A program made the position numbers and the translations under genes. A DNA stretch of 63,556 nt from Thraustochytrium aureum (Eukaryota), in contig BLSG01000423.1 of the NCBI GenBank assembly GCA_012862495.1, positions 82,377 to 145,932 on the forward strand, read 5' to 3'. The notes below the pieces were generated by a model. The model saw only the letters and a program-made list of their open reading frames with translations. It was not told where the DNA came from and did no database searches. This document shows, piece after piece, positions 942 to 39,167 of the stretch (positions are counted from its first letter, which is position 1; the number at the start of each line of letters is the position of its first letter).

Positions 942-2613
942 ATGCCTCCATCTCCCTCCCGCCGTTCCTGTCCAAGCTGCTGACCATCACGCNNNNNNNN
1001 NNNNNNNNNNNNNNNNNNNNNNNNNNNNNNNNNNNNNNNNNNNNNNNNNNNNNNNNNNNNNNNNNNNNNNNNNNNNNNNNNNNNNNNNNNNNNNNNNNNN
1101 NNNNNNNNNNNNNNNNNNNNNNNNNNNNNNNNNAAGGGCAACAAGTCCACCTTCATCCGGCAACTGCACTTTTACTGCTTCAAGAAACTCGACAACAAGG
1201 GCGACATTTGGGGCTTCACCCACCCGAAATTCCTCCGCGACGCGCCGCACCTGATCTACGAGATCAAGCGCAAGACGCGCACCGAGACGTCCGGGCCCGC
1301 CTCGAAGGACGAGGTCCAGGCCCTGCGCACCGAGACCGTCAACATGCGCCGCGACATGAAGACGATGCAGGCGCAGATCGACGCCCTCACCAAGCAGCTA
1401 GAGAGCGTGGTCGGGCTCGCGCACAGGCAGACGGAGCAGCTCGCCTCCATCTCGGGCGCGGGCGTGATCAAAACCGACCCCTTCGCGGCCGAGCCCCTCT
1501 TCCACAAAAAGCCCAAGCTGTCCTCAGACAGGTACGAGTCGGACGACGACGCCGCCCGCAGCAACGGCGGCAGCGCCGTCTCCGGCTTGCTGCCCTTTGA
1601 GGACAACTCGCACGCGGCCTTTTACCGCGAAGCGGGCCTGCTCCCGCCCAACGGGGCGGTGTCGTCCCCGGCCTACAGCCAGGACGACGACTTCGGAATC
1701 TCCAAGCCGGAGGGCGAGGACCTCGACAGAAACATGGAGCTCGGCGACCTCACCGACCTCTTCCTCGGTAGTCTCGAGCAACCCATGGATTTTCGCAGCA
1801 CCTCAGAGGGCATCCACAGCCTCTCGAGCGGCTCGCTGCAAAGCTCGTCTAGCTCCTCTTCCAGTAGCGCCTCGTCGGACCACTCTGCGCCCTCGACCGC
1901 CGTGGGCTCGCCGGGCCCCGTGCCGGCCGTGAGCGCCGCCGCGCCAACGCAGGAGAACTGCAAGGTGGTTTTGTCCTCCGAGACCGGGGAGATCCCCATG
2001 GAGAACCAGGTCTTCGCCGGGTTCCTGGCCAAGTTCATTGAGCACGCCGAGCTCCTCAACAACCGCAACATGCTCTCGGGGGACCTCGACCCAGAGCTCG
2101 AGATCTTCGTCCATGCCAGCCTGCCCGCGGACTGTCCGCTCAAAGACCTCCTCACCTACGCACCCGCCAAGGTCCGGACCGTGCTGGCCAACGTGCTCAG
2201 CGACGTCTCTGCGTCGAACTGGCAGTGTAAAAACCCGTGCCAGCAGGCCGCCCAAGGCTCGTTCCTGACGCGCCCGCTCCTATTGTTTCGCTTTCCGTAC
2301 GCCATCAAGGAGGTGCGCGGCGAGTGCTTTCTGCACTTTTTGGCCTTCCTGCTTCGCGCCGCCATCACACCGCGCCACGTGGCCTCGCCCAATGTCAACA
2401 CGGACTCGAGCCCGTTCTTCGCTGCGTTCTCGCGGTTTTTCACCCCCAACGTGCACCGTGTCATGTGCATCGCGCACCAGCAGATCGAGGACGCCAAAAA
2501 AGCGCGTGGGGATGCAGGACTCTGGCAGCGCGTGTGTCCCCGACCGCGGCTTAGAGCGAGAACGCGCACTATGGCGCCGCGCCAAGGCGGTCGCCGCAAC
2601 GACCTACACTTGA
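942..2613 (+). CDS. Heat-shock-factor (HSF-type DNA-binding domain) transcription factor; gap and probable sequencing frameshifts
   Basis: PPFLSKLLTI before the gap. After the gap, from 1134 and in frame with ORF 1344..2774: KGNKSTFIRQLHFYCFKK...WGFTHPKFLRDAPHLIYEIKRK, the HSF DBD signature, then a coiled coil (MKTMQAQIDALTKQLESVV). ATG 942 joins this reading if one C is restored. The C-terminus probably shifts frame at the A-run near 2500 and stops at 2613. Confidence 0.9.
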
Positions 2614-2937
2614 GCGGGCGGCCGGTGCGCGCGCGCGGACAGGCGCGCGTCACCGCGACTCTCGCTCCAATTTTGACTGACAGCTCGGTGTGCAGAGGCA
2701 AAGCGGGCTGCTGGCATGGCCAGTCCCCGCTTTGCCTCGACGCAGGGGCTTGCCAGTGCTCATCTTTTTTTTAACCGTTCGTTCATTCAGGGATCAGCCG
2801 ATTACTCGCGCTGAGGCACCCGTCGTTCAACTACTTCTCATCATCATCAATTCTCCATCAACAACAACGCTGCAACTTTGCACCTTTCCATTCTCTGCTT
2901 CACCATCTACTTCGTTCCTCTTCGTCGATCTTTGGTC

Positions 2938-24702: not shown

Positions 24703-27700
24703 TCATAGCTCCTCCCCGGAGCCCCGGAGCACGCGCGGCTCAAGCGCGGAGGCGGCTTTGAGCAAGTCTTCTACGTGCGGGAGACGCGAAAAGTAGTGCA
24801 AAAACCTCCGCCGACTCTTCGCAGCCTCTCGCTCCACCTCCCTGTTGCACATCTGGACGACAAACGGCATGTGGTCCAGCAAGCTCGGGTGCGTCCGCCG
24901 CTGGTTGGCCGTGCCGGAGCCTCCGCGAGACGCTCCTAGCGCAAAGTCACTCAAGCACGCCTCCGCAACCCGCCGAGCCAACTTGAGCCATGCCCGCTGG
25001 CGCTCGTCCAAACCGTCAGGCTCGCCCTGCCGCGGTCGGTGCTCGGTCAGACCCGCTTGTCTCGCTGAAAGCTGGTAGGCCTCTGCGCGCAGTGCCGCGC
25101 GGAGCGGCTCGCCAGGAACGAAGGGGGCCCCCGAAAAATCTGCGACGATGTCGTGGTTTGGCGCCACCCCGCGCTGCCGGCCACGCGAAAGCGGCGGACA
25201 CGTCACAACCTCCAAGAGGGACCGCGTCTCCAAGAGCGTCACAAGTTCCCCGAGGTCCCTGTCGATTGTCGCGCAGGCGTGGCTATTCGTCACCCGTGAC
25301 TCTGGCTCTGGGCCAAGGTCTGCTTTCGCCGTTGCAGGGCCCACGTCGCATGGTTCGGCAGCGAGCTTGTATTCGAAGAATGCGTCGCTCGTGCCCACCA
25401 AGTCGATGGCTGACGCGGATGCAACTCGCTTGCCACATTTGAAACCGAGCTCCAGACGAACCGTGCGCGGCCATGAGCGCGACTTGGCGGCGCGCATTGC
25501 CGCCGTGGGCTTGGCGCCATGCAGTCCCCTCACGTGGCCAGACCTCCCTGCTTTGCCGGGCGGCAACAAAAAATCGTCGTCCTCCTCGTCGTCGCTCTCG
25601 ATTTCGTCCTTGCTGCCTGCCTCCTCGCAAGTTGGGCTGCCGTCCCGTGGCAGAGGCAGGCCAGCGGATCCCAGCGCCTCAAAACCTGGCATGGGCGGAG
25701 TGGTGGCCGACCACGAGCCATCTTCGCTCGCCGAGACGGCCGAACAAGGCCGTCCGCCCACAAGGACGACCGCGTTCGCAACTCCAGGCGGAGCCAAGTT
25801 TTCTCCGGAAATGACCAGCGCAGTCGACCCATGTGCTGGCCCGCTCGCAGGCGCTACTGTGCGAATCACAGGGGCTGGCAAAGCCCAATCCCGCTGGCGC
25901 TTCGCCGCTGGACTTGACGCTGCCAGGGCAAGGAGCGCGTCGTCCAGCAACGTGCTTTGCCCAAGTTCGAGGTGGATACCGTACTCGTCGCGCTGCTCCT
26001 GCAGGTCCGCGTCGGATCCAACAGGAGGGAACATGCAGATGCGGACAGGGTCTGGGATGGTCGTGGGTAGAACCACGTCGTCAACCACGGCGTCAGCTCG
26101 ATGCAGATCCACAACGTGCGGCGTTGGTCGAGGCGGCGAGGAGAGGTCTAAAACCTCTTGCTGCCTCGGCTGGCATTGGCGAGGAGCGCGAGGGGGCGAT
26201 GGAGGAGCAGCATGGCCACAGGGTGGGCCATTCGCGGGAGCGCCGTCGGGCGCCTGCTCGTCGCAGTCTTGCACCTCAACGAACTGGATCTCGGAAGGGG
26301 CGACCGACGCGAGCGCTCGCCTTGGCGACTCGAGCTCAAGCGAGCAGTAGAACTGCAGGTGGTTGAGGCAGGCCCTTGGGTCCCGCTGCTTGAGGCGAGC
26401 GAGAGTCCGAAGCTGCTCAAGAGAAGCGCGCACCCCTTCCGCCAAGCAGACGCACTGGAGCGCCGCAACCAGGTCGTCCATGGAGGGCGGGTCGACGCGC
26501 ATTGTCGCAACGAACGCGTCTTCGACGACAGCAGTCATGTCATGCGGGACCCGGTTGCAAGTAACCACGACGGGGCACCGAGCGCTCGCGACAAGGGATT
26601 TTAGCCACGCGTAAAACCCTTTGTCCTCGTCGAAAACGATGTCAGCCTCGTCGACGAGCACGATCGAGTTGTTGAGAGCAGCCGCGGGGCCAATTACGCG
26701 CGACTGAGTCGCCTCGCCCAGGGTCTGCTTCATTTGCGTCGCAGACCGGAGCTGCCCTGGGTGGGCCTCCACGACCTTGTAGCCAAGACGCGCGGCAGCG
26801 TGGTGTACAAAGGCTGTCTTGCAGGCTCCCGATTGGCCCACGAGAACTTGGATGACTGCGCTTGAGCTGCCCCGCGCCATGCCTGCGCCCCAGCTCGAGT
26901 TGCTCCCGTCTTCGCTATAAAAGCCAAGCCCGGAGTTGGAGTCGACGCCGTACAAAGGGTGTTGCGGGTGCGGAGCTGTCCACGTTGACAGCCAGCGCTC
27001 CAGCTCTGGCATGGCCGAGTCTGCGCCAGTCGCTAGCAGATCACAGCACGGGCCCATGTACCGATCCACCCAAGACTGCCCCGCGTCGCGGCCGGCCTTG
27101 GCCAGCGCAACCGTCGCGAAAGGCCGCGCGAGCGCGCGGTCAGCAAGCCCCAAAGACGCGGCNNNNNNNNNNNNNNNNNNNNNNNNNNNNNNNNNNNNNN
27201 NNNNNNNNNNNNNNNNNNNNNNNNNNNNNNNNNNNNNNNNNNNNNNNNNNNNNNNNNNNNNNNNNNNNNNNNNNNNNNNNNNNNNNNNNNNNNNNNNNNN
27301 NNNNNNNNNNNNNNNNNNNNNNNNNNNNNNNNNNNNNNNNNNNNNNNNNNNNNNNNNNNNNNNNNNNNNNNNGACGTGCGAGCGGGCGCCAAGCCCCCAA
27401 GAGCTCGTCAGTGGCAGCAAGTCGTGCGACGTGATCCGCCCGCGCTGCGCTCGCGAAGGACTCCCAGTCCAATGCGGCCACCTCGCGCGGCGTCAGCACG
27501 GGCCTGGGAATCCCCAGCGGGCCGGGAAAGTGGGGCAGATTCCACCCGCCCTCGGGACTGTATTGCGGGCCAAAAGTGCTTTCGTCCTCGCCCATGGCGT
27601 TGCCCGCAGCGCCGTAGACGCGCCGCTGGCGTGGCATGAAGAACGGGTTGACTTTTCCTGTAACTCTTGGGGCGGGATCCTCGCTGGTTGGCCAGTTCGC

Positions 27701-30762: not shown

Positions 30763-31353
30763 ACGTTGAACTCGCCTGCCGAGACGGTCTACAAGCTTGT
30801 GAGCCTCGCCTCGAACTGGCCTAGCTGGGACCCGGACGTGTTCGAGGTGAACGAGCTGAGCTCATTCCCAAGCGACGACTCGACGTCGCTCGTGCACGCC
30901 CGGCTGCGGCCCTTTGTCCCCTTGGACCGCGAGATGGTGGGCACGCGGGTGCTCCCAGGGGAGAGCATCCGGCCGAGGGATTTGTGCCTGCTGTGGCACA
31001 GGACCAGCTCGTTTCGCGAGTATGCGGTCTGCTTGCACTCTGTTGGTTGGAGCGACTGTCCTTCTGCCAAGGGCCACACGCGGGCCCGCTTGCGCTCGTC
31101 GGGCGTATTGCTTGGGCCAAGTATTTCGGAGGACGGGAGCGTTGACGATCGACGCACGGACCTCTGCTTTGTGTTCTTACTCGACATGGGCTCAGCGATG
31201 CCAGAGTATCTACAGCAGTACATCATCGAAGCCAAGTGCGCTTGCATCGACAAGTTGGTCGACATCGTGGCCGCCTCGCAGCCGACCGGAGGAACGTATT
31301 GCCTGGCCCCATTAAATGCGGCAGAGGCGGCGGCGCTGCAGATCGTGCCGTAG
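30763..31353 (+). CDS. START (lipid-binding) domain protein, 3' part
   Basis: PAETVYKLV....WPSWDP, RPRDLCLL, HSVGWSDCPSAKGHTRA...SGVLLGP and LDMGSAMP match START-domain motifs. The 5' end is in the gap. Confidence 0.8.
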   Translation, partial: TLNSPAETVYKLVSLASNWPSWDPDVFEVNELSSFPSDDSTSLVHARLRPFVPLDREMVGTRVLPGESIRPRDLCLLWHRTSSFREYAVCLHSVGWSDCPSAKGHTRARLRSSGVLLGPSISEDGSVDDRRTDLCFVFLLDMGSAMPEYLQQYIIEAKCACIDKLVDIVAASQPTGGTYCLAPLNAAEAAALQIVP

Positions 31354-31484
31354 GTCTGCAGCTGGCTCGTCGAGCTGCGCGGTTGCTTGGAGCGCGCTGA
31401 GCGCTCTGGCGGCCAGGCAGATTCTTGTTATTCTTTGTTGCCCAAAACAACACACAACAACTATGCGTTGGCCGGAAGCGCCTC

Positions 31485-33633
31485 TCACTCTCGTACTTGG
31501 TCAAGGGGTGCGGCCCCGGCAGCTACCTTGGGCGCTCCTAGCCCCTCTTGCTTTTGCATGTGCGCCGCTCGAAGGCGCGCCAAATGCTCGTCCTGATTCG
31601 CAGCGCCAGCGTCCGACTCGCTGGCGACCGCGCTCGGCGGCTCGTCAAGGCGGTTCTGGTTGGAGATGTCGCAGGTCTTGCAGTGTGCGCAAGTCCGCGT
31701 GTTGTGCATCTTGCTGGCGGCGTCGACAAAGTCGGAGGCTTCCCAGCCCTCGCACTTGGGTATCTGGCGCAAAGCGGCGCGGCGCCAGTCTGCGGCGCTG
31801 GAAAAGGCAAAGTGCAGCAGCATGAGATCGCGGAATAGGCCGGCTTTTCCCGGTTCCAGTGGCAGCGCATGCGCTCCACGGCGTCCAGGTCGCGAGAGCA
31901 AATCGCCTCGTCCAGGGCCTTGACGCGCTTGTCCAGGTTCCAGGCCGTCTTGCACGAGCTGCAAATGCAGGTGGCAAGCAGGACAGCCTCCACCTCGCCG
32001 CGGGAATAGAGGTTGCGGAAGCGCTGGTGAATCTTGGCGAANNNNNNNNNNNNNNNNNNNNNNNNNNNNNNNNNNNNNNNNNNNNNNNNNNNNNNNNNNN
32101 NNNNNNNNNNNNNNNNNNNNNNNNNNNNNNNNNNNNNNNNNNNNNNNNNNNNNNNNNNNNNNNNNNNNNNNNNNNNNNNNNNNNNNNNNNNNNNNNNNNN
32201 NNNNNNNNNNNNNNNNNNNNNNNNNNNNNNNNNNNNNNNNNNNNNNNNNNNNNNNNNNNNNNNNNNNNNNNNNNNNNNNNNNNNNNNNNNNNNNNNNNNN
32301 NNNNNNNNNNNNNNNNNNNNNNNNNNNNNNNNNNNNNNNNNNNNNNNNNNNNNNNNNNNNNNNNNNNNNNNNNNNNNNNNNNNNNNNNNNNNNNNNNNNN
32401 NNNNNNNNNNNNNNNNNNNNNNNNNNNNNNNNNNNNNNNNNNNNNNNNNNNNNNNNNNNNNNNNNNNNNNNNNNNNNNNNNNNNNNNNNNNNNNNNNNNN
32501 NNNNNNNNNNNNNNNNNNNNNNNNNNNNNNNNNNNNNNNNNNNNNNNNNNNNNNNNNNNNNNNNNNNNNNNNNNNNNNNNNNNNNNNNNNNNNNNNNNNN
32601 NNNNNNNNNNNNNNNNNNNNNNNNNNNNNNNNNNNNNNNNNNNNNNNNNNNNNNNNNNNNNNNNNNNNNNNNNNNNNNNNNNNNNNNNNNNNNNNNNNNN
32701 NNNNNNNNNNNNNNNNNNNNNNNNNNGAAGCGTTGCCCGCCGCGGGGGCGGGCGAGGCGTTGGCACGTGACCGGTTGAGCTTGCCGCGTTTTGGCCTTCT
32801 GCTGTGGTGCCACGGCAGCCGCGCTTGCGTCGTCTGCCCTGAAGCGAGAGCGCTGGGGCGTCGGCCGCGGCGGAGCGGGTTCGAGGTTTCGCGTTGCGCG
32901 CAGGCGGTCGCGTGCGCTCGGGCGATTTGTCCTTTGCTACGTGTGCTAGGTTTTGCAGGCTGCTTTCGGGCCCTGGCGGTGCCAGCTGCTGTGAGATGCT
33001 AAGCGCGGACAGGTTGCGAGGCAAAAGCTCGCGAAATAGCGACTCGGTCCGCGAGGAGCCCAGCAGCTTGATCAGGCGTTCGTTCTGCTTGTCGCCGAGG
33101 ACCTCGCTGAGCGGCGGCGCGGCCTCTTCGTGGAGCGGCATCGCGTTGGCACGTGTTAGCGGCCTAGATCTCGTCGCACGAGACGCGCTGGCGTTCTCCG
33201 TGCTGATGGCGTTGGCTTGGTCGCCGAAGAGGCTGTCGATCGAGGACACCCTCCCGAGGTTGCCTTGGTTGGACAAGGACGCCAGGCGGACGAGGTAGGA
33301 GGACAGTGTGGCGACGCTCGCATCGCTCCCGGTCCGCGCAGGCTCTGCATTCGGCGCCAAGGTCGACCCTGGTTGGGTCTGTGTCGAGTCGCCGAGGTCG
33401 GAGCTGGACACCACGTCGGCCACCGACTCGTACAGGTCAAAAGCGCTTTGCGCGCGCTCAAGCGCGGCGTTTCCCGCGCATTCTTCGAGAAAGCCGCTTT
33501 CGCCGGCCCTCTGGTCCACGCTGGGCTGCCGCCGAAGCCACGTGAGCACATCTGCGAGCATGTCTTGCGCTTTCGCCGGCGACAGCCCGAGCTCGGACAT
33601 GCTCCTCCTCGCTGCCTCGTTCTGCTCATCCAT
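31485..33633 (-). CDS. Hypothetical protein A: disordered N-terminus plus C-terminal Cys/His domain (paralogue of 36335..37983)
   Basis: ATG 33633 (MDEQNEAARR). After the gap: FAKIHQRFRNLYSRGEVEAVLLATCICSSCKTAW...(frameshift near 31840)...LFRDLMLLH...LRQIPKCEG...MHNTRTCAHCK. Confidence 0.65.
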
Positions 33634-33838
33634 CGCGCCGCCCAGCGCGAGCCTGCCCTGCAGCGCGCAGCGCGATCCTGTAGGGCCCAAACCAGCCTGC
33701 AGGGTCTCGAGAGCGCTTCCTCGCCCGTCCGCGGACAGCACTCAAGGTGGGCACTTGTGGGTCGTGACAGGGGTGACTGGGGCTTGCTGGCCTGGACAAC
33801 CGGTCCGATCCTCGGCGGCCCCTTCGAGCGCGTACCGG

Positions 33839-33840
<2 letters not shown>

Positions 33841-33877
<37 letters not shown>

Positions 33878-33919
33878 GGTGGCGGCTATTGCGGCGGCGG
33901 CGGCGGCTATTGCTGCTGC
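33841..33919 (+). repeat. (CTG)n and (GCG)n trinucleotide repeats upstream of gene A
   Basis: About 12 perfect CTG units followed by GCG-rich units. Confidence 0.9.
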
Positions 33920-35225
33920 GGCTGCTCTTGCGCGTCCCGCGTTCGGAGTCTGCCGCTCGTCGGCTGGCTCGGGTTGCCCGCCACGAGCGGACTACTGAAT
34001 ACCAATACCAGAACGCACATCTTTGCTGTCTTAATACTGTAATTCAATATTATTGGCGCGCACGCGCGATACCTTAGTTGGCGTTGGAGTACTGATAGTC
34101 AAGAGTCGACCGCGCTGACCGCGGCCGAGCTGCGACGCTCCTTCCTTTTTGTTTTCTTTTCGCGCGGTCGATGCTTGTGCTGTCCGCGTGATGAGGCCTG
34201 CGTGGTCATTGCGATGCTTGCCCGGCCCTCGCGAGGCTTGCGCGGCCCCCAGAGGCTTGCAGGCGAGCTCGATCGGCGATGGCGTGCAGAGCCGCCTCAA
34301 AGCGACTCGCGCGATCGTTCCGCGGCTGTGCTTGCCTGGGCACGGAGCAGCGCAGTGCAAGTGCCTGCCACGTCTCCGCGCGAAGGGAGTTCTCAGGGAG
34401 CGCGAGTTGCAGCATGCCGCTCGCTAACCGGTCAACGGATTGGGCTGCCAAGAAAAAAGTTGACCGACAAGGGATCGAGAGGGCTGCCGATCTCTCGAGC
34501 GCGGCGGGCCGGCAACAGATGTTTTAATTAAAAAGATGCGCAGACCTGGAAGCAGCTCCNNNNNNNNNNNNNNNNNNNNNNNNNNNNNNNNNNNNNNNNN
34601 NNNNNNNNNNNNNNNNNNNNNNNNNNNNNNNNNNNNNNNNNNNNNNNNNNNNNNNNNNNNNNNNNNNNNNNNNNNNNNNNNNNNNNNNNNNNNNNNNNNN
34701 NNNNNNNNNNNNNNNNNNNNNNNNNNNNNNNNNNNNNNNNNNNNNNNNNNNNNNNNNNNNNNNNNNNNNNNNNNNNNNNNNNNNNNNNNNNNNNNNNNNN
34801 NNNNNNNNNNNNNNNNNNNNNNNNNNNNNNNNNNNNNNNNNNNNNNNNNNNNNNNNNNNNNNNNNNNNNNNNNNNNNNNNNNNNNNNNNNNNNNNNNNNN
34901 NNNNNNNNNNNNNNNNNNNNNNNNNNNNNNNNNNNNNNNNNNNNNNNNNNNNNNNNNNNNNNNNNNNNNNNNNNNNNNNNNNNNNNNNNNNNNNNNNNNN
35001 NNNNNNNNNNNNNNNNNNNNNNNNNNNNNNNNNNNNNNNNNNNNNNNNNNNNNNNNNNNNNNNNNNNNNNNNNNNNNNNNNNNNNNNNNNNNNNNNNNNN
35101 NNNNNNNNNNNNNNNNNNNNNNNNNNNNNNNNNNNNNNNNNNNNNNNNNNNNNNNNNNNNNNNNNNNNNNNNNNNNNNNNNNNNNNNNNNNNNGCTGGCG
35201 CCTGCAGGGTTCTTAAAAAGAAGCA

Positions 35226-35251
35226 GCTGGCTGGCTGGCTGGCTGGCTGGC
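35226..35251 (+). repeat. (GCTG)n microsatellite
   Basis: About 6 tandem units. Confidence 0.85.
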
Positions 35252-36334
35252 GTGGGTTGCGACGGCCGCGCTCACGTGGTGGCTGTTGCGCGTTCTGCAC
35301 GCGCTGAGCAACAACAGCGAGACTGCCAGCGTGGTCGGCGGCCGTCTTGCCTGCCTGCGTGCCTGCCTGCGTGGTCGGGCGGCCGTCCTGCTGGTGAGCT
35401 GATTCGTCCCACGTTCGCTCTGCACTGCGAGAGATTGATCAGCCTCAGGATGTTCTGCAAAGCACGTTCATCACCGCCGCGTGGACTTGGTTGCACAGCG
35501 AAAGAGTCGGCGCGCGCCAAAGCACAGCTTGTCGCGTTTGCGTGGAAGCCAGGACGGAGGTGGATACCACCAAGGAGGATCCCTTCGTGGCACTGGTAGC
35601 AGTGCCAGGGTCGCACCGCAGCAGCGTTCACCCGCCGCGGCCTGTTCGCGCGGCCGCACAGAGCACTGCGGTCTTCTGGTTCAACTAGACACGAGTAGAG
35701 CAGAATTCAATTCAGATTGCATCAAGTGTTGGAGATAATCGAGTAGAGCGCCGCTCACGTGTCCACTCCACTCCAGAAAGCGGCCTGCGAAACCAACCAG
35801 CGTGAACACCCGTGTGAGTCGTTGACTCGATGCCTGCCAGCGGCGCGCATGCGGGCCCTTGAGGAAGGAAGGCAAGCCTGAGGAGGAGCGGCTCTGCTGC
35901 GAGTCTGCGACACGCCTAGCTAGATGGGACGCCGCACGAGCGGGCTGTTTATGAAACCCGGCGCACTGCTATGGGATTCGCAGGCGTGTTTTCCGGGCCC
36001 CCCCCAAGCAACGCGCGCTCGCGGCAGAGGAGCTACCCGCGTTGTTCGACCGCCATGAAGCGACTTTGCTTGGAAAAACGCGTCTCCGATACAATCTCGA
36101 GAGCAAAACAGCGAAAAGGCAGCGTCGCCCTCACAGTTCCGAAAGCGTTCCGAGCTCGAGCGGCCCAGTTCTCCGTGGCTTCACCAGTCACAGAACGTGG
36201 TCATTTGACAGCTCGAGCTGCGAAGCAAATCCACATCATCGCGTGTACAACTGGTACCAATCCCAGCGCGTGGCCGTCGCGAACAACAAACATATCGCGC
36301 GTAGATCAGCCTTCCCGTCAAGCCCAAAGCGACG

Positions 36335-37983
36335 ATGTTCGGGGACTACTCCGACCTGGAGCCGCTCGAGGCCGGCCTCGAGGCCGACCTGACCAGCTTC
36401 AGCAGCTTCCCAGGCGACCACTTCGCGGGCTACGGCTTCGCGGACCCCGCCTACACGCCTATTCTGGGGATGCCGGCGCCCACCGCCACCAAGGACATGG
36501 CGGAACAGCAAGAGGACATGGCGGAACAGCAAGAGATCTTGGAGAACCTCCTGCTGGACGACGACTGCCAAGACGGCACATCGGTCTTCTCGGAGCGGAC
36601 CCAAGCGACGCCGTACGACTACCTTGACAACTTTGGCGGCGACTTTACTCCCTTTCCTTCAACGGGACTCAAGCGGAATCGGTCCACCGCCTCGGAGCTC
36701 ACTTTCCATGGGGCGGCCCACGCCCACGAGAGCGGCTCCAGGTTCAGGGCGTCAAGCCCGCGAGCAAAATCTTGCGCGTCGAGAGCATTGGCCCTGCGGC
36801 TGCGCAAGCAATCCAGCGGGTGGAGCAGCTGGTGCCAGGGACCCCCGAGCCGCAGCAGCTCGGTAGCTGGATCCCCCCCCCGCGACAGTGCATTTCGCCA
36901 GTGTCGCGGCATTCGTACCACGCGCAGCCGCAGCAGCAGAGGTCGCTCAAGCGTCCTCCCGCCTCTGGCCCTACCGCCGGCGAGCTCAAGCGATCGTTGT
37001 CTACCGATGAAGAGCAGCAGCGCGCGCCGGCACCCGTGGCCTCGGCCTCGTCGCAGCCCGCACATCAAGAGCTCCGGATCCCGAGGACCGAGATTATCAA
37101 AGCCATGGTTCGCAAGAACGGCGGCAAGTGCAAGGAGGCAAACTGCGAGATGTACGTCGCCCTGTTCGAGCTCATTGCCAGCGACCTCGACAAGCTGTCG
37201 ACGCAGCGGTATCGCGCATGGCGCGAGATCCAGGACCAGTTCGAGTCCAAGTTCCCGACGCCCAAGGCAAGGGCCTTTGTGAAGGACCTCCGCCAGCTCG
37301 TAAAGAAGCTGCTGCGCGAGCGCCGCACGCGGCAGCACCAGCTCGCGTGGGACGAGCTCCGCGCCGCCTGCAAGCTCCCCGAGCGGACCAAGGTCGACGC
37401 GGCGGCCATGGCGAGGGCGAGGGCCGAGCTCCACCCCAAGCTGGCCGCCTGGCTCCCCGCCTTTCCGCCCAACGAGCTCAACGATTTCATCGACTACGTG
37501 ATCAAGGCAGCCGCCAAGGGGACCAAGACGCCTGCCATGCTAGACCTGCCCAAGAGCGTGCTCGCCCACATCAAGAAGCTGCACCTCAGCAACGAGTTCC
37601 GCGGCCGCTCGGACGCGCTGCACGAGGAGGTGCTCTCCAAGCTCTTCGCCCTTGCCGACCTGCAGATTACGCTCGCAACCATCTGCGGCTGCGATAGCTG
37701 CAAAGCTTGCTGGCAAGGCGGCATCGCCCCGGCCAGTAGCCGCGCCTCCGCGGATGATGTGCGGCTCAAGTGGACGTGTGTCTCGTCGAAAACAGCGGCG
37801 CAGCTCTTGCGCCTGCACCAGACCGCGGCAGACGGCCTGCCTTCGATCGAGGCCATCCGCGGGATCACGCGCTTCGAAGGGGCCAACGAGGCGGACATGC
37901 CGCTGATTGCCGAGGCCATCCGCGTTCTGCACACCCCGGACCACTGCACCACGTGCAAGGCGGCGCGCAGCCGGTATGATTGA
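36335..37983 (+). CDS. Hypothetical protein B: acidic/aromatic N-terminus, helical basic core, C-terminal Cys/His domain (frameshift near 36725)
   Basis: MFGDYSDLEPLEAGLEADL... joined to ORF 36772..37983, with strongly GC3-biased codons. Ends TLATICGCDSCKACW...LLRLH...IRGITRFEG...LHTPDHCTTCK. Confidence 0.75.
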
Positions 37984-38139
37984 TCACTTTCACAGCATTC
38001 TTCGTAAATATATTGTACCATTATCTCGTTCAGGAGTCTGCGAATACCGAGCGACTGAGCCCGCCAGCGCTAGGCCAAGTCCAGGCGAGGTCGCCAACGT
38101 CGCTTGCGTGGGGCTTGAGCGCCGCGCCTCGAGGCGGTT

Positions 38140-38819
38140 TCAGCCCGACTCTTTAGCTATGCCGAGGTGGGGCTTCTCGCTCCTGCTGTGCTCTTCGGCC
38201 ACGTTGCTGGGCTCGTCCGTGCGTGTCAGGTTTTCCGACATCGAGCTGAGCGCACCATGGTGCCCTTCGTCCGCCAGCTCCTGCGCCGTCTCGCCAAGGA
38301 CGCTACCCCGTGCGCTAAAGTCGGCGCTCGTCGTCGACGCGCTCGAGCCTGTCCTTGCGCGCTCCCTTCGTGCTTGCTGCCCCAGTGGAGACGAAACAGG
38401 GGTGCTGTCGTCCCGCGGCACACCGGCGCTCTCCTCCTCCACGATCACGCCTGGGCCTTCGGTGAACGCGGGCCGCTTGCTCCTATCTTGGCTAAAGTTC
38501 TGGAAAAGCCCCTTCTTGCTGGCATGCATCTCTTCCTCGAGCTCGCGCAGCTCCATCTCCTGGCTCTTGCTCCTCGTCAGCTTCTCCTTCCCCTGCGACG
38601 TCTGCTCCTGCTCCTTGGTCAGCGCAAACCCCACTCGTCGGCTTGCGTTGCTGGCAGCGTCCATCCCAAGACTTTGAAAAACGCAACGCGCTGGCGACGG
38701 TCGAAACGTTGGCTCGGCTGACGGCGCCTGCCTCCGGGTGCGTTCCCTCGTGAGATTCTCGACGTCCTCGCTCCTGCTCGTGATGTTGCTCACGATGTTG
38801 CTTGTGACGTCGCTTGCGA

Positions 38820-38851
<32 letters not shown>

Positions 38852-39167
38852 ATGCTGATCTGGTTGGCGTTGCGAATGTGGTTGCCAAGGCTTGGTCCTC
38901 CAGAGCGTTTGGGGTTTGGTCAACTATCCGTGTCCAATGCGAGCGGGCAAGCTGCTGTCCGTGAAGGGGATCTGCCTTGCCGACTTTTCTCTCGAAACCA
39001 CTGAGGATGGCCTGAGCTTCTGTGTTGTCTTTGAAGCAGAGTTCCTGTGAGCGGTGCATGCTTTCCACGGCTATTTGCACTGCTCGGCGTTCGTGGAAAC
39101 AAGGAGGACTCGGATCATCCTTTGTGACCGGCCCGACCGGCCCTCGTGCAAACTTTGGTGGGCTCAT
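38140..39167 (-). CDS. Hypothetical low-complexity protein (probably frameshifted; 5' extent uncertain)
   Basis: Coding-like ORF 38140..38793 (MDAASNASRRVGFALTKEQ...) with upstream overlapping ORFs to 39167 across a CAG repeat. No domain recognised. Confidence 0.4.

Follow-up and report, generated by a model that had tools for sequence, protein, structure and literature searches.

Two divergently oriented genes of Thraustochytrium aureum, termed A and B here, both prove to be intact and belong to a multi-gene family that has no name and so far comprises only thraustochytrid proteins and records without a taxon label. They lie head to head in the window analysed, i.e., the whole stretch of 63,556 nt on the forward strand of contig BLSG01000423.1 (positions 82,377–145,932, assembly GCA_012862495.1), which is numbered from 1 below. 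The family is real, and its domain is confidently predicted to adopt a fold that matches no solved structure; its features point to a function in gene regulation. Thraustochytrids are major marine decomposers and the industrial source of docosahexaenoic acid, they include a clam parasite, and genetic tools for them exist. Their regulators have been catalogued by known domains, e.g., MYB and zinc-finger classes (PMC10840233). Since such catalogues rely on known domains, a multi-member family without a Pfam model is invisible to them.

Genes A and B Belong to One Family

The initial annotation, made from the letters of the window, had proposed that A and B share a C-terminal Cys/His domain, and both segments were recovered with all their motifs at the proposed positions. 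Aligned with an X at the break in A, the two domains reach a Smith-Waterman score of 70, which was attained by none of 5000 shuffles (Gumbel P ~5e-6) and by none of 5000 block shuffles preserving short motifs. The blastp identity is 26% over 117 amino acids (aa; E 1.9e-5). Among 861 six-frame segments of the window, the motifs CxCxxCxxxW and RxIxxxEG are each confined to A and B. The match drops to P 0.019 if Cys is masked and to P 0.22 if His is masked as well. Hence, taken by itself, the A/B alignment depends strongly on the metal ligands, and evidence from outside the pair is needed.

A profile search of the kind the initial annotation had suggested, with the core of B, the domain of B and the two pieces of A, was run against 1.84 billion protein representatives and returned 12 proteins of 425–944 aa at E<=1e-3 (best 3.5e-19). 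A hidden Markov model (HMM) of these 12 homologues, which were found via the A and B profile and are hence not blind picks, recovers B at E 2.5e-36 and A at 5.8e-17 (its two pieces separately at 9.8e-10 and 1.1e-5) with A and B themselves left out of the model. No other frame of the window falls below E 3.5. The 12-homologue HMM settles the membership of A and B in a common family. All members have this domain as their single common part, and it spans 251–273 aa (~255 aa) rather than the ~115 aa first proposed.

Four homologues are labelled as thraustochytrid directly, namely two hypothetical proteins of Hondaea fermentalgiana, one Thraustochytrium sp. LLF1b cluster and one from Mucochytrium quahogii. 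Three further clusters carry the labels MMETSP0958/0960 and taxon id 87120, a fungus at NCBI; Aurantiochytrium limacinum is 87102. We take these libraries to be A. limacinum and 87120 to be a typing error. The remaining five have no taxon, and several homologues are transcriptome records. As far as the labels go, the lineage restriction that had been postulated is thus supported.

The proposal of a new protein family is likewise supported. Every family in Pfam, NCBIfam and PHROGs matches at most one of the 13 domain rows, the best curated score being that of FBA_1 for one member (19.5 bits vs a cut-off of 21.1), and none of the 12 whole homologue proteins reaches a Pfam cut-off. A literature search, with subscription papers and supplements outside its scope, found no description of the Hondaea accessions or of such a family.

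Gene Models after Repair of One-Base Errors

The window was compared with contigs from four of six listed sequencing runs (X1, X2, X3, and X6) belonging to two studies. The window may itself derive from X1; X2 and X3 come from another study than X1 and differ by many substitutions, and X2, X3, and X6 are guessed to be RNA. Gene B, which carries the complete domain, has the following features:

36335–37983, plus strand: coding span of B, 549 aa, with one base missing behind 36745
36335–37146, plus strand: N-terminal region with an acidic/aromatic, probably activation-domain-like start, a K[KR]x[KR] motif and low complexity
37147–37959, plus strand: complete family domain, 271 aa (positions 3–256 of the 12-homologue HMM)
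37147–37332, plus strand: N-terminal module of three helices, basic and possibly the Myb/SANT-like part that contacts DNA (sub-cut-off MADF match, charge, conserved basic columns)
37582–37701, plus strand: predicted metal site 1 (invariant His 37582–37584, CxCxxC 37684–37701)
37756–37959, plus strand: C-terminal three-helix module with predicted metal site 2 (His 37816–37818, His 37930–37932, CxxC 37945–37956)

The base behind 36745 is present in X1, X2, and X3 and restores the link between the domain and the acidic N-terminus of B. The initial annotation had noted this acidic start and had not reported the missing base. Gene A forms one frame once the assembly is corrected for three errors of one base each:

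31485–33633, minus strand: coding span of A (ATG 33633, stop 31485)
32727–33633, minus strand: N-terminal region, of low complexity for the most part; the assembly has two bases too many here (32789 and 32842)
32042–32726, no strand: assembly gap with family-like motifs at its edges, partly covered by an X2 contig
31677–32041, minus strand: C-terminal half of the family domain (family positions 148–256)
31952–31969, minus strand: CxCxxC of predicted metal site 1, equivalent by sequence and conservation to family C168, C170, and C173
31843–31844, no strand: base lost from the window assembly, the cause of the frameshift
31680–31814, minus strand: predicted metal site 2 (His 31812–31814, His 31704–31706, CxxC 31680–31691, equivalent to family H209, H243, C248, and C251)

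The frameshift in A, already postulated, is an assembly error: the X1 and X3 contigs have one extra base there, and those of X2 and X6 do not span 31843/31844. Bases 32789 and 32842 are absent from all of X1, X2, and X3. The strong Arg-rich run in the window frame of A (~32820–32840) sits between these two surplus bases and is therefore an artefact. G+C at third codon positions is 0.81–0.92 in the domain pieces.

At the gap, whose closure had been proposed, an X2 contig runs 784 bases ahead of 32727 and never reaches the far side, so the gap is probably longer than drawn, with a true size above ~750 bases. Both gap edges, read from 30-base loose contig ends translated by hand, are in frame and family-like. 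At the 32041 side, a His stands 11 residues ahead of the FAKIH His with G-x-R in between, which is the spacing of the invariant H136 in homologue P0002; the 32727 side ends in PE and resembles the residues preceding helix 1 in P0003 and P0004. Most likely, the sequence missing here encodes the first half of the domain, and A, with the gap unread, would encode at least ~740 aa.

Conserved Residues Suggest Two Zinc Sites

In the 13-row alignment, numbered after the domain of P0007, R59, H136, L154, L206, H209, H243, C248, and C251 are invariant. C168, C170, and C173 are kept in 12 of 13 rows, as are W68, W177, W194, W230, R22, K53, E58, R60, and D234. The eight putative Cys/His ligands (three His and two Cys in 13/13 rows, three Cys in 12/13) allow four conserved ligands per site, as in zinc proteins. 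Thus, the domain likely binds two zinc ions, for which the simplest pairing would be C168/C170/C173 with H136 and H209/H243/C248/C251. The zinc binding suggested at the outset therefore gains from conservation in the sequences. In P0009, the Thraustochytrium sp. LLF1b cluster, all three Cys of CxCxxC are gone and the other five ligands including H136 are retained, which would make it a natural one-site variant.

Charge is unevenly distributed. The first 75 residues of the domain are net positive in all 13 rows and hold most fixed basic columns, whereas net charge past this point is close to zero. The long flanks cannot be aligned; on the N side they carry a net acidic charge in 11 of 13 members, and K[KR]x[KR] occurs in the flanks of eight of 13.

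A Predicted Fold without a Known Counterpart

The domain is predicted to form one compact all-helical unit of 14 helices (predicted template modelling score, pTM, 0.90), with three-helix modules at both ends and ~125 aa of helices between them. Structure searches with the model, including BFVD, gave no whole-domain match. Hence, the confidently predicted fold appears to be unlike any solved protein, and a confident model without a solved counterpart is an attractive target for structure determination and DNA-binding studies.

In its presumed mode of action, the domain is most like Myb/SANT-like and ALOG-type lineage-specific regulators, yet it differs from them in several defining features. 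Sub-threshold Myb/SANT-like leads came from HMMs, language-model features and structure. B matches MADF (PF10545) with 17.1 bits vs a cut-off of 22 (E 0.007; one of 13 members), and the N-module of P0003, the same module, gives a Myb_Rap1 lead. With this group (MADF, Myb_Rap1 PF08914, Tbf1/telobox Myb, MTA1 SANT) the domain would share three-helix modules at both ends, a basic third helix in the N-module and the occurrence as one domain amid low-complexity flanks. In contrast, all members stay below the curated cut-offs, the ~125 aa of helices join the modules into one unit, and eight Cys/His are conserved. Myb/SANT-like domains have a core of regularly spaced Trp including one in helix 3; such a core is present in neither module, as the third-helix Trp is replaced. 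In the N-module, W/F opens helix 2 and helix 3 has Val/Cys/Thr/Ile/Ala, and the C-module keeps the first Trp in 12 of 13 rows with an aliphatic residue at the helix-3 position.

TAZ is an all-helical zinc domain with three HCCC sites at helix ends and H-x3-C spacing. A helical bundle tied through His/Cys sites at helix ends would be common to both, whereas H-x3-C occurs nowhere in the new domain and PF02135 gave no score. ALOG domains are plant regulators derived from a DIRS1-type recombinase; they are all-alpha, lineage-restricted, zinc-carrying solo domains with CxC and low-complexity flanks, built of four helices with a single HxxxC/CxC ribbon between helices 2 and 3 (PMC3537659). The new domain resembles ALOG in being all-alpha, lineage-restricted and a predicted zinc solo domain with a CxC motif between low-complexity flanks, and it differs in its 14 predicted helices, in CxCxxC and H-x4-5-CxxC, and in having no HxxxC. 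ALOG is absent among the Pfam matches and among the fold matches listed; the tyrosine-recombinase core-binding fold is absent among the structure matches listed.

A Possible Role in Gene Regulation

A basic N-module, a neutral remainder and acidic flanks with K[KR]x[KR] together have the layout of a sequence-specific regulator. We therefore regard it as rather probable that the domain acts as a zinc-clamped DNA-binding gene regulator in which the N-module reads DNA. The transcription factor proposed by the initial annotation is plausible in view of architecture, charge and the sub-threshold Myb-type leads; the likely DNA contact would lie in the N-module, which it had called the helical core of B, and not in the Cys/His part. 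The N-module, in which Asn17, Arg19, Arg22, Lys49, Lys53 and an ERRxR tail are conserved, may dock on DNA in the style of a Myb/SANT-like helix-turn-helix. The two zinc sites (CxCxxC and one His; two His and CxxC) would hold together the middle helices and a second Myb/SANT-like bundle, which is neutral, and this zinc-clamped part might act as scaffold or as a surface for partners. Signals for nuclear import, together with acidic segments that activate or repress, could reside in the long variable flanks, and the head-to-head pair might use common upstream control elements. More tentatively, the domain may be an undescribed DNA-binding fold in which two zinc sites lock a pair of degenerate Myb-like bundles into one body, and it may define the first transcription-factor family specific to thraustochytrids; each genome would then carry several ancient subfamilies that domain-based surveys have overlooked.

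Three other explanations were considered, each with some observations in its favour. MTA1 and Chd1 are among the VIA rows for the C-module, the last helix of this module is neutral to acidic, and the domain past residue 75 ranges in net charge from −7 to +3. The protein might hence be a nuclear chromatin adaptor whose bundles bind histone tails or partners, as SANT domains of co-repressor/remodeller complexes do, with non-specific DNA contact. This is unlikely given that Asn/Arg/Lys are fixed at helix and loop positions of the N-module though the rows average 28% identity; furthermore, many paralogues with unrelated flanks are generally the pattern of sequence-specific factors.

The lack of a whole-domain structural match leaves function unconstrained, the three invariant His could be catalytic, and CxCxxC and CxxC could hold an iron-sulfur cluster. 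An RNA-binding protein or metalloenzyme whose active or binding site is formed by conserved His, Glu58-Arg59-Arg60, Asp and Trp residues is, however, distinctly improbable: enzyme families match at most one of 13 members in Pfam, NCBIfam and PHROGs, three Cys are lost in one member, which would be unusual for an essential cofactor, and the long low-complexity flanks carry basic motifs.

Finally, the tree branches of A and B are very long (3.1 and 3.7), the genes form a divergent pair, three of the 12 homologues are unnamed records on contigs of 140–177 kb, and transposons gave rise to many lineage-specific factors (PMC3537659). A mobile-element, viral or recently domesticated protein (Harbinger-type Myb-like partner, ALOG-like recombinase DNA-binding domain, thraustochytrid virus gene) nevertheless seems very doubtful. 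Ordinary host genes adjoin, and DDE, integrase and reverse-transcriptase domains stay below cut-off in every member, with no match in BFVD. The PIF/Harbinger layout of a DDE transposase with terminal inverted repeats was not found; the gene next to each member of the pair is its own paralogue, the scanned window ORFs (open reading frames) contain no transposase family, and no terminal repeats were detected in 31300–38200, where 1319 bases are unread gaps.

Origin of the Gene Pair

The initial annotation had derived the pair from an old inverted duplication, of which the age holds: the sequences place the A/B duplication far back. The best tree does not make A and B sisters. The relatives of B are P0001, P0002, and P0009 (93/95), whereas A, which occupies just 42% of the alignment columns, groups with P0005, P0007, P0008, and P0012 (81/69); the 93/95 branch lies between them, and the approximately unbiased (AU) test of an A+B clade gives p 0.052. 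At the DNA level, A and B share nothing beyond chance matches of 20–33 bases. A local inversion is one possible source of the head-to-head arrangement. Two contigs are given in the record of P0007 and likewise in that of P0012, with the same maximum length of 176,973 bases, possibly a hint of linked paralogues elsewhere. The divergent upstream region of ~2.7 kb described before was found, with 634 of its bases being N:

33634–36334, no strand: shared upstream region, 2701 bases from ATG to ATG, with CTG/GCG and GCTG microsatellites

At 33634–33830, an X2 contig connects the coding region of A with the CTG repeat; if X2 is RNA, the 5′ leader of A would thus measure at least 200 bases.

Neighbouring Genes and Assembly Quality

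The window is eukaryotic and GC-rich, has 22 N runs, and its genes are mostly uninterrupted. Family scans identified an HSF-type factor, a protein kinase, a papain protease, an acyl-CoA oxidase, a WD40 protein and an RGS protein. Individual ORFs of note are:

1134–2771, plus strand: gene with HSF-type DNA-binding domain (Pfam E 1.3e-7), its start hidden by a gap
24703–27057, minus strand: 784-aa ORF with weak AAA ATPase and IPT/TIG matches, an unusual combination
30763–31353, plus strand: gene converging on A, weak START/polyketide-cyclase-like match (E 0.002), 3′ end at most ~130 bases from the stop of A
38140–38919, minus strand: Ser-rich low-complexity ORF converging on B, without Pfam match; X2 contigs are deep there

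The locus demonstrates how one-base assembly errors break genes, with four in A and B together (31843/31844, 32789, and 32842 in A; 36745 in B). Frameshifts in the T. aureum assembly are probably errors in general. Compared with X1 and other runs, indels of 1–2 bases occur at window positions 31449, 31843, 32789, 32842, 34115, 36745, 39247, and 39374, mostly in short homopolymers.
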